64,000 bases of DNA. Source: an uncultured Candidatus Melainabacteria bacterium. Its GTDB lineage: Bacteria > Cyanobacteriota > Vampirovibrionia > Gastranaerophilales > Gastranaerophilaceae. The stretch is from NCBI GenBank assembly GCA_949841365.1, contig CATKZI010000004.1:959-64958 (forward strand), in the 5' to 3' direction. The translations under genes and the position numbers were made by a program. This document shows, one piece after another, positions 5,870-53,560 of this stretch; position 1 is the stretch's first letter; every line of letters starts with the position of its first letter. The notes under the pieces were generated by a model, which made no database searches, was not told the DNA's origin, and was given only the letters and a program-made list of their open reading frames with translations.

Positions 5870-7210
5870 TTAATTTACCTTAAAGAATTCCTTAATTTCC
5901 TGAGCACTTTGAGCAGTTGTAAAGATTATCAAAATATCGTCTGTTGTAATCAATGTATCACCTTTGGGAATAATAACTTTATTGCGTCTTTGAATTATTC
6001 CGATAATTGCACGTGCAGGAAATCTTAAATCCATAACTTTTTTACCGTTGAATTCCGGCAAGACATTGATTTCCAAAACTTCACCCTGTCCCTGTTCAAC
6101 TGTTGCAAGGATGTCAATATCATTTTCCTGCAAGTCGTTGCGAACTTCATTAATTGCAGAGTTCTTAGGTGAAATCGCGATATCAATACCGACTTTTTCA
6201 AACAGCGGAATGTTTAATACTTTTGAAACTCTTGCTATAACTCTTTTTACTCCCAATTGTTTTGAAAGAAGCGAGCATAAAAGGTTTCTTTCGTCGTTGT
6301 TTGTTACACTAATGACAACATCTGCCGATCCGATTTCTTCATCATCAAGAAGTTTTAAATTTGTACCGTCGCCGTTTATTACAAGAGTATTGCGCAGTTC
6401 TTCGGCTAAATACTGGCATCTTTCGTAATTTTTTTCAATGATTTTTGTTTTAATTTTCATTGTTTCAAGAGTTTTGGCAAGCATTAAACCGACATTTCCG
6501 CCGCCGATTATGGCTGTAGATTTGACAATTTCTTTTTCATGAAAAAACGTACCTGCAAGAATGTCCAGCGAATGAGAAGTTCCCATAAAGATAAGCTTGT
6601 CGCCGTCTTGAATTTCGGTTTCGCCGTTAGGAATAAACAAACAGCAGTCGCGGGTTAAACCTACCATCAATGTGTCTTTGGTAAATCCGCAGTCTTTAAC
6701 CTTTTTACCAACGATTGAATGGTAGGGTTCGACTTTATATTCCAATAATCTTGCTTTGCCGTCTGCAAAGTTTTCAACATCTAACGCATGTGCAACTGTT
6801 ACGATGCGAAAAATTTCTTGTGTCAAAAGTTCTTCGGGCCAAATAATGTAATCAATAAAGAAATCGCAGAAATGTTCGTTATTTTTTTCAAAGCTTAAAG
6901 TTTTTTTGTATTCTTCCTTGCTTACAAAGCAAATTGTTCTTATTCCACCGAACTTTTTAGCTGAAAGACAGGCAACAATATTTGCTTCATCAATCGCCGT
7001 ACATGCAATAAAAATATCCGCATTTTTTATGTCTGCATTTTTTAAAACTTCTATATCTGACGCATTTCCCTGAACAAAACTTATATCAAGTTTGTTAAAT
7101 TCGTCGGTTCGATTTTCTTCTTTGTCGATTATTGTTATGTCGTGGTCTTCAAAAAATTCTGTTGCCAAAAGGCAGCCGATTTCTGTAGCACCGTAAATTA
7201 CTATTTTCAT
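5870..7210 (-). CDS. trkA: Trk system potassium uptake protein TrkA (two RCK/NAD-binding domains)
   Basis: 446 aa with two Rossmann-type N-termini (MKIVIYGATEIG and AIIGGGNVG), each followed by an RCK_C-like segment. Confidence 0.9.
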   Translation of the reverse strand: MKIVIYGATEIGCLLATEFFEDHDITIIDKEENRTDEFNKLDISFVQGNASDIEVLKNADIKNADIFIACTAIDEANIVACLSAKKFGGIRTICFVSKEEYKKTLSFEKNNEHFCDFFIDYIIWPEELLTQEIFRIVTVAHALDVENFADGKARLLEYKVEPYHSIVGKKVKDCGFTKDTLMVGLTRDCCLFIPNGETEIQDGDKLIFMGTSHSLDILAGTFFHEKEIVKSTAIIGGGNVGLMLAKTLETMKIKTKIIEKNYERCQYLAEELRNTLVINGDGTNLKLLDDEEIGSADVVISVTNNDERNLLCSLLSKQLGVKRVIARVSKVLNIPLFEKVGIDIAISPKNSAINEVRNDLQENDIDILATVEQGQGEVLEINVLPEFNGKKVMDLRFPARAIIGIIQRRNKVIIPKGDTLITTDDILIIFTTAQSAQEIKEFFKVN

Positions 7211-8679: not shown

Positions 8680-9312
8680 TTGAAAAAATTATTACTGTTA
8701 ACTTTTACACTTATGTGTATATTGTTTACACATGCGTCTGCACAAGCTGCTGATGTTAACTCTGTAAAAGCAACAATAGTAAAACATGCTATTGAAATGG
8801 GCGTGGATCCTGCAATTGCGTTAAGTATTGCGCGCACAGAATCAGGGTTCAGACATGAGGCAAGAAGTTCTCATGGTGCTGTAGGGGTTTTTCAATTGAT
8901 GCCTTCAACAGCAAGAAGAATGGGATACAATCCGTATTCTTTGAATGAAAACATTAAAGCAGGCATTACATATTACAAAAAAATGTATAATATGTTCGGC
9001 TCTGTAGAATTGGCACTTGCAGCTTACAATGCAGGTCCGGGGAATGTTAAAAAATACAATAACAAAGTTCCCCCGTATGGTGAAACAAGACGTTTTGTAA
9101 GTAAAATTATGACTGATGTAAACAGACAAAGAGTTGCTCCGGATCCGATAGTTGCAAAGGTCAGAAGCGGAGCATACACAGCTCAAAAACCTGCAGGAAC
9201 AATTAAACCTGCATCAGCTCCAAAATTAATTGATGCAAAAGATTTGCAGGTTGAGGTTTTAGAAGAAAAACCGATAGAATTAAAACTTGAAACATTAACA
9301 ATTGCAATTTAG
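8680..9312 (+). CDS. Secreted lytic transglycosylase (SLT domain)
   Basis: TTG start preceded by a GAGGA RBS, followed by a signal peptide. SLT motifs ESGF, GVFQLMPSTA and AYNAGPGNV are present. Confidence 0.85.
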   Translation: MKKLLLLTFTLMCILFTHASAQAADVNSVKATIVKHAIEMGVDPAIALSIARTESGFRHEARSSHGAVGVFQLMPSTARRMGYNPYSLNENIKAGITYYKKMYNMFGSVELALAAYNAGPGNVKKYNNKVPPYGETRRFVSKIMTDVNRQRVAPDPIVAKVRSGAYTAQKPAGTIKPASAPKLIDAKDLQVEVLEEKPIELKLETLTIAI

Positions 9313-19626: not shown

Positions 19627-19653
19627 AAAGCACCTCGAAAGAGGTGCTTTTTT
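19627..19653. terminator. Rho-independent terminator (copy A of a 26-nt repeat)
   Basis: AGCACCTC-GAAA-GAGGTGCT hairpin followed by T6. Lies between hppA (+) and the convergent pilin-like gene (-). Confidence 0.7.
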
Positions 19654-20359
19654 ATTCGTATAAATATTTAGCTCCGCATCCTGAACCTGCCATTCCTCCC
19701 GGTCCGCAAGCACCAGCATCGCTTTCAGCTGATTTGTCACAACCTTTGAGTTCATATCCCTGAGCACCACCGGGGATTACTTTATTTCCTCTGAATAAAA
19801 CAATAAACATATCACGCCCTACAATGTTAGGACCTTTTGTGCCATTAACATCAACTAAAAAGGAGGGATGCGTCCAAATGTAACTCTGGGCATATATTCT
19901 GACACCGCTGTTTAATTGTGCATAACCTCCTCCTCCTGCATACATACACCATTTTTTGTCATCGTTTGGATTTAATGTTTTGCAGTCAGGAGAAACATTT
20001 TTTTGATTGCCAAATCCATTGGCGCATATTTTACCTTGTGTGCCGTCTACTACACAGTAATCTTCACTTAATCTTGATAATACTTGATAATATATTTCTG
20101 TTGAATATGGTTTTACAATTGTATCCAGACCGGTAAGAGGATGATTAATTGGGTTTTCAGCAAAAGCATTTTCATAAGCACTGCTTATTTGTGCAAAGGT
20201 CTTTTTCCACAATGCTTTAAAGTGTTTGTCTTGAATATTGTTTACAAGTGTTGGAATAGTTATAGCAGAAACAACACCTATGATTCCAAGTGTAATAAGC
20301 GTTTCAGATAATGTAAAACCTTTATTACTACGAAATTTTAAATCTGATAATTTACACAT
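19652..20359 (-). CDS. Type IV pilin-like protein (prepilin N-terminal cleavage/methylation domain), intact
   Basis: Start moved to MCKLSDLKFRSNKGFTLSETLITLGIIGVVSAITIPTLV, which has an AAGAGG RBS. It has the G-1/F+1/E+5 motif. The C-terminal VDVNGTKGPNIVGRDMF motif is shared with the two other paralogues. Confidence 0.85.
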   Translation of the reverse strand: MCKLSDLKFRSNKGFTLSETLITLGIIGVVSAITIPTLVNNIQDKHFKALWKKTFAQISSAYENAFAENPINHPLTGLDTIVKPYSTEIYYQVLSRLSEDYCVVDGTQGKICANGFGNQKNVSPDCKTLNPNDDKKWCMYAGGGGYAQLNSGVRIYAQSYIWTHPSFLVDVNGTKGPNIVGRDMFIVLFRGNKVIPGGAQGYELKGCDKSAESDAGACGPGGMAGSGCGAKYLYE

Positions 20360-20405
20360 ATTATATACCTCTTTTACTTTCCAAAAGCTCTTTTTAAGGT
20401 TTTTA

Positions 20406-20422
20406 GTAGACACTTTGTCTAC
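20406..20422. promoter_or_regulatory. 17-bp palindrome, candidate operator in the divergent pilin/XRE promoter region
   Basis: GTAGACA-CTT-TGTCTAC, with perfect 7-bp arms. Lies between the pilin-like gene start (20359) and the XRE gene start (20457). Confidence 0.35.
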
Positions 20423-24016: not shown

Positions 24017-24735
24017 TTATTTGCAAGAGGTTTTTCCATTCCAAGAAAGGTCTTTGCAATGTAAATAATCGAGATTCTCGTTGAAAATAACCCAAGCAGT
24101 ACAGCGGTCGCCGTAATTTTGACTTCCTCCTAAGCATCGAGTTAGAAATTCACTATCTTCGTTACCTATAGCAATAACCATGTTATTTACAAGATTAAAT
24201 TGAAATAAGTCTTTGCCGTATGTATTAGGACCATTTGCACCGTTCACATCATAAAAAATATAAAATTGAGGCCCGTCTTTTACATAATTTCCTGCTATAC
24301 CGCGAAAAGCAATAGATGCTCCATCAGCAAGAAGTACTTTATAATAGCGTGAATCTGTCCCGTAATTTGCGGAAACGCTGCTGCCATCAAGCCATTTATA
24401 ATTTTTCATATAGAAACAACCTTGACCATTAGCACCGCAATCTTTTGCAATTTTCAAATATGGCCTAAATATATTGAATACTTGTAAAGCTCCGTCATAA
24501 CTCCAAGGAAGTGAATATTCTCCCGGTTGCTCTTCATTGTTATACATATTATATGCATTACTTAATGTAGAATACATCTTTTTCATTTTATTAACGGTAA
24601 CTTTTTCTCGGTGTTTTTCAATAAGCACAGGCATGGTCATTGCTGCTACCACGCCGATAATACCAAGAGTAATCAAAACTTCAGCTAAAGTAAAACCTTC
24701 GGGGGGGGGGCACTCACAGCTTTTTTATTAAACAT
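24017..24735 (-). CDS. Type IV pilin-like protein interrupted by a frameshift at a C10 tract (candidate phase-variable gene, OFF as assembled)
   Basis: GGAGG RBS and ATG at 24735, then 8 codons, then C10 (24710-24701). After the tract comes EGFTLAEVLITLGIIGVVAAMTMPVLI in a different frame, continuing into track ORF 24017-24676. C11 or C8 would restore a single ORF. The C-terminal YDVNGANGPNTYGKDLF motif is present. Confidence 0.8.
24701..24710. repeat. G10/C10 homopolymer inside the pilin leader coding region
   Basis: Counted directly: gggggggggg at 24701-24710. It is one of only two such tracts in the window. Confidence 0.95.
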
Positions 24736-24810
24736 ATATACCTCCAATTATTATTTTTAATTATAAATGATTTTTTTACATTTTGCAAGATTTATAGTAG
24801 TATTTTTTTT

Positions 24811-37394: not shown

Positions 37395-37656
37395 ATATCT
37401 CTAATATAATATAAAAAAAAATTTTTGCAATAGGCTTAAATTAATTCTTAAGGATTAATTATTGTTCGCTATTTTGTTATCAAAAAGTCATTCCGCAGAA
37501 GGGTGAAAACTATTGAAAAAAACGTTATCATATATATGTAAGCTTGTTGTATCCAGGCACTTTTTCGGGGTTGCGATAAGATTTTTTCTTAACCGGGTTT
37601 GGTTTAAAATATGGCAGGCTTATCTTTTTGTCACAAACTCTATGTTTCATATACGG

Positions 37657-52750: not shown

Positions 52751-52772
52751 ATAAATTTGCCTTATAAATATA

Positions 52773-52802
52773 AAAAACCGCTTTAACATAAGCGGTTTTT
52801 TT
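52773..52802 (+). terminator. Rho-independent terminator
   Basis: AACCGCTT-TAACAT-AAGCGGTT hairpin followed by T7. A TGTTATAAT extended -10 for the next gene follows immediately. Confidence 0.7.
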
Positions 52803-52832
52803 GTTATAATAATAAAAAAGGAGGAAGCAGAT

Positions 52833-53560
52833 ATGAAATTTAATCAAAATATCGGGGGGGGGGCACTCATAGCTTAACTCCTGCGTTTACTTTAGCTGAG
52901 GTTTTAATTACTCTCGGAATAATCGGAGTTGTCGCGGCGCTTGTTATACAAGCCCTTGTAACTAATATAACTAATAAGGGATATGTTGAAAGATTAAAGA
53001 AGGCTCAAGCTGTATTACAAATTGCTACGGATACTATACTAAATGAGAATAGTGCTATTTTTGTACCAAATGGTAAAGAAATTTGTGATACTGTCGGTGC
53101 TGAAGCTGAAAAAAAGGCCTATGAAGAATTTATTGAATCCTATGCGTCTAAAATGAAAGTAATAAAAAGATGTGAAAGAACCAGCTGGAACTCTAATCAA
53201 TGTGTTAACGGCTGGAATTCATATAAAGGGCTTGATAATAGTATATTGCAAAATGTTGAGAATAACATGCCGTTTTATTTTACTTATCCGCTTGTATTAG
53301 CAGATGGTATGACTATTGCATTTAGATTTCAATCGAATGGCGGTGGAGGATTTTTCTGGACTCAGGATGCATCAGTACGCTTTACTGTAGATGTTAATGG
53401 AAAAAAAGGTCCTAATAAACTTGGCAGGGATGTGTTTTTGTTGTATCTGCGTGATGGAAAAATTGTCCCCAACAGTAAATATATTGGGGACTGTGAAACA
53501 AATAAAACAGGCTTGAGCTGTGCATACAGGGTTCTGACTGAAGGCGGTATGAACTATTAA
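52833..53560 (+). CDS. Type IV pilin-like protein interrupted by a frameshift at a G10 tract (candidate phase-variable gene, OFF as assembled)
   Basis: AAAGGAGG RBS and ATG at 52833, then 7 codons, then G10 (52854-52863). A frame without stops runs from 52844 through AFTLAEVLITLGIIGVVAALV (52883 onward) into track ORF 53153-53560. G11 or G8 would fuse it to the ATG. The C-terminal VDVNGKKGPNKLGRDVF motif is present. Confidence 0.8.
52854..52863. repeat. G10 homopolymer inside the pilin leader coding region
   Basis: Counted directly: 7 G at 52854-52860 plus 3 G at 52861-52863. Confidence 0.95.

Follow-up and report, generated by a model that had tools for sequence, protein, structure and literature searches.

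Background

The closest described counterpart of the system considered here is the pilC locus of Neisseria, where a poly-G tract in the signal-peptide coding region reportedly causes frameshift phase variation of a pilus protein, as Jonsson and colleagues are said to have found in 1991. Poly-G/C contingency loci also occur in surface-structure genes of Campylobacter jejuni and Helicobacter pylori. Here we analyze a 24-nucleotide (nt) element that is present twice in a 64-kb stretch of DNA from an uncultured Candidatus Melainabacteria bacterium (assembly GCA_949841365.1, contig CATKZI010000004.1, positions 959 to 64,958; hereafter the window), each copy lying close to the start codon of a type IV pilin-like gene (genes 1 and 2). 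The lineage to which this bacterium belongs, the Gastranaerophilales, consists of non-photosynthetic relatives of cyanobacteria from animal guts. We consider, with a probability of about three in four, that the element is one of many copies of a conserved pilin switch in Candidatus Gastranaerophilales that works by strand slippage and is locked in its orientation to the chromosome strand, and that the complementarity it confers on the mRNAs of genes 1 and 2 is a by-product.

The likeness to Neisseria pilC lies in the placement of a G homopolymer just past the start codon, in a segment encoding an N-terminal signal that is predicted to be cleaved, so that run length sets the frame and would leave the mature protein unaltered. 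The Gastranaerophilales differ from it in having dozens of pilin paralogues per genome that carry the switch, in one dominant run length (10) with a near-universal rule that 11 or 8 is ON, and in conserved flanks that occur in either orientation relative to the gene. With C. jejuni and H. pylori they share many G/C homopolymers of 8-12 nt, their location in surface-structure genes, polymorphism between populations and a modal length set by length-dependent indel bias, whereas in those two organisms the ON length varies from gene to gene. We know of no report of Campylobacter or Helicobacter loci that share a flank consensus or are locked to a replication strand, and a search of the literature on flank consensus or replication-strand locking of contingency loci found no such report. 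Short G-rich motifs oriented by replication rather than by genes are familiar from Chi, from KOPS and other FtsK-orienting sequences, from IS200/IS605 elements and from repetitive extragenic palindromes (REP), but nothing seen here links the present motif to recombination, segregation or transposition; it is found within coding leaders, where it works as a frameshift switch. Phase variation by a homopolymer in the coding region of a signal peptide is already classical from Neisseria pilC and from Campylobacter and Helicobacter. The contingency-locus concept has been reviewed (PMC10710837). Literature searches on phase variation, pilins or homopolymers in Gastranaerophilales or Melainabacteria, and on repeat orientation relative to the leading or lagging strand in general, returned no prior description beyond the general point that mutation of G tracts is different on the leading strand, and the host lineage, the scale of paralogy, the single OFF-by-default ground-state length, the one-sided flank and the strand-locked orientation appear to be undescribed in the literature searched.

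Two pilin genes with a frame-setting homopolymer

Genes 1 and 2 are paralogues that are 30% identical overall and lie on opposite strands (Table 1). Both encode a (G/A)-F-x-x-x-E motif, with the predicted processing site before the F, followed by a hydrophobic helix whose start, FTLAEVLITLGIIGVVAA, is identical in the two genes, as expected of type IV pilins. The prepilin N-terminal motif is detected in both by TIGR02532 (23.1 bits for gene 1 and 18.2 for gene 2; cutoff 16.3), and PF07963 gives 18.9 and 17.1 bits, respectively, under its cutoff of 21.2. The two element copies are direct repeats on the plus strand, 28 kb apart, and each follows the start codon and precedes the segment for the prepilin N-terminus, FTLAEVLITLGIIG. 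An earlier reading of the window from its letters alone (the sequence-only reading) had reported that the copies agree at 23 of 24 positions and that they stand in opposite orientation relative to the two genes; both statements hold on the sequence, the sole difference being C or T within TC-G10-CACTCA[C/T]AGCT-T. A search of the window for G8CACTCAYAGCT with up to two mismatches recovers these two sites only, against 0 expected from 100 shuffles, and their homopolymers are the sole G or C runs of 6 nt or more in the 64 kb, which have a GC content of 36%. In the ON frame the element encodes unrelated peptides, KAVSAPPP in gene 1 and GGGGTHSL in gene 2, so the likeness is at the level of nucleic acid and not of protein, as had been argued.

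The start codon of gene 1 is the ATG at 24735-24733, not at 24737, and its C run begins 25 nt after the A of this ATG; at C10 the ATG frame ends at a stop codon at 24687-24685. In gene 2, the G run begins 21 nt after the first letter of the ATG at 52833, and at G10 the ATG frame stops at 52875-52877, ahead of the TTT codon at 52886 with which the mature N-terminus is predicted to begin. With one G added or two removed, the ATG of either gene reads into the pilin frame, giving MFNKKAVSAPPPEG/FTLAEV... in gene 1 and MKFNQNIGGGGTHSLTPA/FTLAEV... in gene 2 (the slash marks the predicted processing site). Both thus carry what characterizes a contingency locus at the sequence level, viz., a homopolymer of about 7 nt or more in the 5' coding region that sets the reading frame. 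A third pilin-like gene at 19652-20413 (minus strand; ...SNKG/FTLSETLITLGIIGVVSAITIP...), about 4 kb from gene 1, has no homopolymer and appears to be a constitutively readable paralogue.

The predicted ON and OFF products of genes 1 and 2 were looked up by exact sequence in a collection of 15 billion proteins. The protein of gene 2 expected from G11 (P0121) is found in one contig and the shortened OFF product (P0001) in 26 contigs. For gene 1, the C11 protein (P0123) is found in three contigs of the collection, six contigs being read by direct look-up, while the C10 products P0122 and P0125 are found in 22 and 21 contigs; C8 (P0126), C9 (P0128, P0129) and C12 (P0124) are also represented, C9 and C12 being implied by products that start at a GTG adjoining the run. 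Run lengths of 8, 9, 10, 11 and 12 are thus seen for gene 1 and of 10 and 11 for gene 2, with 10 by far the most frequent. The DNA of five contigs (C11 of gene 1 in L254-L257; G11 of gene 2 in L258) has flanks that are otherwise identical to those of the window, and therefore the length variation is genuine, exists at the DNA level and has a strong mode at ten. Such length polymorphism at one locus, with otherwise identical sequence, is what is expected of a contingency locus, and together with the frame rule it bears out the phase switch that the sequence-only reading had proposed for both genes. In sample SRR21392035, gene 1 with C11 (L257) and gene 2 with G11 (L258) are both ON in the consensus.

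Pilin products of the lineage, some of those above among them, are misannotated in the public protein collection (P0001, P0007, P0010, P0091, P0122, P0124 and P0128), being cut to an internal Met, started at a TTG or GTG that abuts the run, or extended upstream in another frame. Because of such gene-caller errors, public pilin counts for Gastranaerophilales are unreliable and the family is under-annotated.

Ten as the probable ground state

The frame relationship of genes 1 and 2 recurs across the lineage. Among pattern-selected loci that have both a Shine-Dalgarno sequence (SD) and an ATG, 90 of 98 are OFF at G10 and need one more G, in both orientations. A second, independent sample was drawn from metagenome contigs by requiring nothing but the leader start ATGAAAAGATTT with eight or more G after it, and it gives the same result: real elements comprise about 8 with G9, 92 with G10 and 3 with G11 (92 of about 103 at G10), all 87 of the 87 G10 pilin loci need +1, and G9 puts a locus into the alternative OFF frame. 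The reading frame is intact at clean G11 loci, two of them in this sample and one elsewhere (L007). Runs that entered the data unselected are G10 in 24 of 30 cases.

A few elements lie in genes other than pilin genes, and two of these hosts help to interpret this uniformity. One is a GT2 glycosyltransferase (L169, ~6704-6730), in which G10 with the same C borders occupies a loop where homologues have GG[DE] or GP[ES]; the other is a YD-repeat protein that carries G10 with the same C borders at its N-terminus (L150, ~1999-2021). Unlike the pilins, both are in frame at G10 and hence ON by default, and therefore ten is a ground state and not simply an OFF state. The most plausible reading of the uniform length is that it is the modal value reached by rapid mutation with a length bias, in which case the default state would be set by the frame of each gene, OFF for pilins.

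We hypothesize that run length would be altered by replication slippage around a modal ground state of ten G, at which the ATG frame of a pilin gene is out of register with the prepilin domain and runs into a stop within a few codons, and that a change to eleven or eight G would restore the pilin frame. The codons of the run, for Gly or Pro, fall in the leader, 5' of the predicted processing site, and their residues would be removed on maturation, so that run length would never alter the mature pilin. For each of the many paralogues OFF would then be the default, with only a minority of cells in the ON state. The G run is kept on the G-rich strand, such that genes co-oriented with this strand carry G10 in their mRNA (G-type), while genes on the other strand carry C10 together with the reverse-complemented flank (C-type).

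A lineage-wide family of elements

Homologues of gene 2 frequently have GGG or PPP in their leaders, and the corresponding DNA is the element, in both orientations and in other species. A scan for TCG10CAN{4,9}AGCT in one genome per species (185,579 species; all counts are lower bounds) found at least 119 loci, and 115 of those listed are in 36 Gastranaerophilales or Melainabacteria assemblies, some of which are mislabelled as Clostridium sp. CAG:768 or CAG:967; the 4 listed loci outside Gastranaerophilales are chance matches. Up to nine copies per genome occur among the matches listed. Of 125 elements considered, a G-oriented run precedes FTLAEVLITLGIIG in 74 and a C-oriented run in 25 (about 3:1), most of the remainder being in long leaders or at contig ends. 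The family consensus is [T]C-G10-C[A/G]-(4-9 nt, mostly A/T)-[A/G]GCT, located about 20-30 nt after the ATG.

Flank statistics were taken from runs that were not the reason for fetching their locus (G-type n=65, C-type n=8). The run is G10 in 89% of the G-type and in 8/8 C-type copies; a C borders it on the 5' side in 88% and 8/8 and on the 3' side in 95% and 8/8, respectively, and C[A/G] follows it in 61/65 and 8/8. The fuller pattern C[AG]-N4-9-[AG]GCT is present in 83% of G-type copies, compared to a background of 4%, and in 5/8 C-type copies; NGCT stands at the place of AGCT in 8/8 C-type copies. Conservation is one-sided: the G run is preceded by 2 conserved nt and followed by about 12-14. 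In G-type leaders whose run is in the register of the ATG (commonest spacings 21, 30 and 84 nt), both bordering C residues fall at third codon positions (xTC GGG...GGC), which in an AT-rich genome points to a constraint at the nucleic-acid level. In C-type leaders, loss of AGCT corresponds to synonymous Ala codons (GCT to GCA or GCG) within a recurring peptide, [K/E]-A-L-R-[I/V]-A-P-P-P. Flank subfamilies, CAATT... and CACTC..., are found among G-type and C-type copies alike.

Decayed or locked relatives of the element are also seen, such as an in-frame G5 with a flank of the gene 2 type, CACTCATAGTTTAAC (L004, 310-335), a G6TG3 (L008, 9990-10010) and a run-less leader, TCTACTCACAGCC (L379, 88-110). 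Viral contigs have five matches to the specific pattern, of which four are high-GC chance matches. The fifth (L383, IMGVR_UViG_2523533517_000007, 8804-8829) has the usual C-type form, complete with start codon and SD; its 10-kb contig of 35% GC is filed as viral and could be part of a prophage or, as its appearance suggests, a piece of Gastranaerophilales chromosome that was misclassified.

Some pilin leaders have a more complex make-up. Long leaders, in which the ATG precedes the run by 84 nt, contain a second conserved module, ...TGTGTTGAAGTGCCTACGCACGTAGTGC, directly 5' of TC-G10 and including the near-palindrome CTACG-CA-CGTAG (L138, L144, L174, L192, L203, L220, L229, L241, L249 and L250, about 30 nt 5' of the run); the module is seen in the C orientation in L215, and its core, ACGCACGT, is present 3' of the runs in L148, L163 and L166. 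Other genes encode a decoy half N-terminus, FTLAE-GATHV..., followed by a complete FTLAEV (P0074, P0080, P0116; L135, L200, L233), and the decoy-leader sequence GGTGCTACGCACGT matches the long-leader module TGTGTTGAAGTGCCTACGCACGTAGTGC; the decoys suggest mosaic recombination among pilin 5' ends. Palindromic repeat-like inserts (e.g. CCCTCTCCTAAATTAGGAGAGGG, translated as ...PSPKLGEGA...) between the run and the pilin N-terminus give rise to very long pseudo-leaders and are seen at 10075-10125 of L008 and in the N-termini of P0003, P0006, P0031, P0097 and P0117; long leaders with such inserts are also present in L186, L194, L196, L219, L221 and L231.

Orientation follows the chromosome strand

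For each 8-kb locus, the GC skew at third codon positions of long open reading frames (GC3 skew) was expressed on the strand that carries the G run. It is about +0.14 for reading frames on that strand and on the opposite strand alike, and is therefore tied to the chromosome strand rather than to transcription. In 78 of 86 loci (59/65 G-type, 19/21 C-type), the G run is carried by the strand that is G-rich at third positions (G3-rich), and the pilin gene runs in the direction of the skew in 59/65 G-type but in only 2/21 C-type loci (Fisher p = 6e-12). A metagenome replicate gives 91 of 95, bringing the total to 169 of 181 (169:12, about 14:1). The window conforms to this rule: cumulative GC skew rises through all 64 kb, the GC3 skew is +0.12 for plus-strand and +0.25 for minus-strand reading frames, and the plus strand, which is G-rich throughout, carries both G runs, gene 2 running with it and gene 1 against it. 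What sets the direction of the element is thus the chromosome strand and not the gene, which is why the element points opposite ways in genes 1 and 2, and the two mRNAs are complementary because genes on opposite strands carry an element of one strand polarity.

The leading strand of bacterial chromosomes is normally the G-rich one, and a difference in mutation between the strands would be enough to produce the rule. The per-site G/C ratio at third codon positions is about 1.33, which over ten sites predicts 1.33^10, or about 17:1, against the observed ratio of about 14:1. Strand-asymmetric mutation, for example one that removes C runs more quickly from whichever strand is more exposed, is hence the likeliest, if unproven, sufficient cause of the strand rule. 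G tracts are known to mutate differently on the leading strand, and the base after a G tract is a substitution hotspot (review, PMC10710837), which makes a role for the bordering C plausible.

Alternative explanations

The sequence-only reading had offered three explanations for the shared element, the foremost being a reciprocal antisense interaction in which G-type and C-type leaders pair in trans, leading to mutual exclusion or to RNase III cleavage on top of the phase switch. The duplex itself is as predicted: 24 nt with a single G:U pair are calculated at -54.6 kcal/mol, of which G10:C10 alone would give -25.6. It had been placed 20-25 nt past the start codons; the element in fact begins at +14 in mRNA 1 and +20 in mRNA 2, and the runs begin at +26 and +22. 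Genes 1 and 2 each have a strong promoter-like site of their own, so both RNAs can exist, and the window pair is unusually similar, falling in the top ~1% of C/G pair similarity; when C/G pairs from different genomes are compared over the 12-nt flank, just 0.9% differ at no more than one position. Trans-acting antisense RNA pairs likewise show long perfect complementarity near the 5' ends of two independently transcribed RNAs. Here, however, complementarity follows automatically from the strand rule, and neither covariation nor recurring matched pairs are seen in related genomes: the middle segment of C-type copies resembles G-type copies from their own genome no more closely than G-type copies from elsewhere (p = 0.07), and none of 95 within-genome C/G pairs is within one mismatch over the 12 nt, so matched pairs are not a feature of the lineage. 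Many genomes have G-type copies only, among the matches listed; the consensus of SRR21392035 with both genes ON speaks against strict exclusion at the population level; and Rfam searches around both loci (E up to 1) found nothing near any gathering score. We therefore give the antisense interaction very little credence, and an RNA-level meaning should not be read into a complementarity that DNA-strand polarity already explains. The search of related genomes that had been suggested for this question returned the at least 119 loci described above, nearly all in pilin leaders and in both orientations, with the orientation tracking the strand and not the gene. A DNA-level unit that carries the tract, the next explanation on offer, fits best with these loci and their strand-tracking, although the forms proposed for it, a protein or methylase target or a mobile insertion, find no support. 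Gene conversion, the last, cannot invert the element if aligned by gene homology, while short-patch copying between the direct repeats, for example by template switching from one G10 run to the other, could have occurred, given how exceptionally similar the two copies are.

A more specific form of the DNA-level unit is a portable, replication-coupled one, in which the run and its 3' flank are copied between loci as DNA, keeping their orientation to the fork and homogenizing the one-sided flank, either because a newly made G run anneals to a different C10 template, where it copies several bases before going back, or through a single-strand-specific enzyme. The sharp borders, the occurrence in both gene orientations with one strand polarity, the asymmetric conservation of 2 nt on one side of the run and about 12-14 nt on the other, the sharing of subfamilies between G-type and C-type copies and the closeness of the window pair are all consistent with such copying, as is the strand-polar orientation, which is typical of single-strand transposition (IS200/IS605, REP). 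Against it, the element has no terminal repeats, hairpin or target duplication, the spacing from run to AGCT varies between 4 and 9 nt, homogenization within genomes is weak, and the leaders of each orientation class form paralogous families, so that much of the similarity is explained by descent. The GT2 host is also at odds with copying: its homologues differ by only three codons, the run being a +3-codon expansion of a Gly-rich loop and the flank the conserved, ancestral S-K-L codons, which shows that the run arose in place, and insertion of a cassette was rejected for this locus. We regard the portable unit as unlikely. It is similarly doubtful that the element is a self-propagating switch cassette, which strand-specific, replication-coupled copying, such as the switching of templates among scattered G10 runs or the action of a dedicated single-strand enzyme, would install on either strand as an OFF-by-default switch and maintain at G10; if true, the many repeats would be copies of one portable contingency module and would not each have evolved independently. 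An element resembling miniature inverted-repeat transposable elements (MITE) or REP was rejected since self-complementarity is lacking, copies are almost confined to pilin leaders and the GT2 run arose in place; the orientation bias relative to replication that such an element would show is present (169/181 on the G3-rich strand), and strand-asymmetric mutation explains it equally well.

Programmed recoding on a fixed G10 would provide low, constant pilin expression and not a heritable switch, through slippage of RNA polymerase (+1 G) or through -1 frameshifting by ribosomes on G GGG GGG or C CCC CCC. The RNA:DNA hybrid in transcription is about 10 bp long, close to the run of ten; about 90% of runs are exactly 10 and, whichever way the run is oriented, one and the same +1/-1 correction is required by about 92-100% of pilin loci, as recoding would have it. 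The DNA variants of 8, 9, 11 and 12 in genes 1 and 2, of which 11 and 8 are in frame, the strand rule, which points to a property of replication and not of transcription or translation, and the non-pilin hosts in frame at G10 argue against this, and we hold recoding as the main mode to be improbable; it could operate alongside phase variation. Still harder to credit is invertible DNA or a shufflon, in which the element would be the site of a site-specific recombinase. A short sequence is indeed shared by the 5' ends of several pilin paralogues, and a near-palindrome, CTACGCACGTAG, stands beside the element in some other genomes. Recombination between direct repeats 28 kb apart would, however, delete the intervening segment and not invert it, each gene has its own promoter-like site, SD and ATG, and the alleles seen differ in run length only; around both loci, no inverted repeats were found beyond A/T-rich chance pairs and a terminator hairpin, so that nothing there resembles an invertible promoter or shufflon.

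Several points weigh against the slipped-strand switch as we have framed it. The near-uniform rule that G10 needs +1 also fits transcriptional slippage or -1 ribosomal frameshifting, either of which could add leaky expression at G10. The data are consensus assemblies, and within-population heterogeneity and switching rates lie outside their reach. The main census was selected for G10 and flanks, the unbiased subsets being smaller (n=8 for the C-type). Because paralogues, orthologues and related metagenome-assembled genomes are not independent loci, the p-values are inflated, while the effect sizes are large. The G-rich strand is presumably the leading strand, an equation made from skew only, with no mapped origin or terminus. 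Part of the C-type flank similarity may reflect shared history and constraint on the peptide, not a DNA function, and the likeness of 12-14 nt 3' of the G run in both gene orientations is left unaccounted for.

The conserved slipped-strand switch would mean that uncultured Gastranaerophilales of human and animal guts possess a very large stochastic pilin repertoire, with up to at least nine switchable paralogues per genome that are OFF by default. It provides a sequence rule by which pilin state could be read, 10 being OFF and 11 or 8 ON. Further, it indicates that contingency tracts can be polarized by replication strand and share a flank, which makes strand-specific slippage and run maintenance directly testable.

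Features of the window

The coordinates of the two loci are collected in Table 1. The terminator hairpin of the gene upstream of gene 2 (52772-52801) overlaps the promoter-like region of the latter.

Table 1. Features of the two pilin loci in the window. A slash marks the predicted processing site.
Feature	Coordinates	Strand	Details
Gene 1, type IV pilin-like	24017..24735	minus	ON product MFNKKAVSAPPPEG/FTLAEVLITLGIIGVV..., 239 aa; opposite to the G-rich strand
Gene 1 promoter-like site and SD	24741..24788	minus	TTGCAA-17-TATAAT at 24788-24760; SD GGAGG at 24745-24741
Element copy 1, TC-G10-CACTCACAGCT-T	24699..24722	plus	Gene 1 mRNA reads AAGCTGTGAGTG-C10-GA; C11 version in L254-L257
G10 homopolymer of gene 1 (C10 in gene sense)	24701..24710	plus	OFF at 10; in frame at 11 or 8
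Gene 2, type IV pilin-like	52833..53560	plus	ON product MKFNQNIGGGGTHSLTPA/FTLAEVLITLGIIGVV..., 242 aa
Gene 2 promoter-like site and SD	52783..52824	plus	TTAACA-16-TG-TATAAT at 52783-52810; SD GGAGG at 52820-52824
Element copy 2, TC-G10-CACTCATAGCT-T	52852..52875	plus	Gene 2 mRNA reads UC-G10-CACUCAUAGCUU; G11 version in L258
G10 homopolymer of gene 2	52854..52863	plus	OFF at 10; in frame at 11 or 8

The sole A or T run of 9 nt or more in the window is at 37413-37426, where A9 is directly followed by T5 (AAAAAAAAATTTTT) in a seemingly intergenic, A/T-rich stretch.

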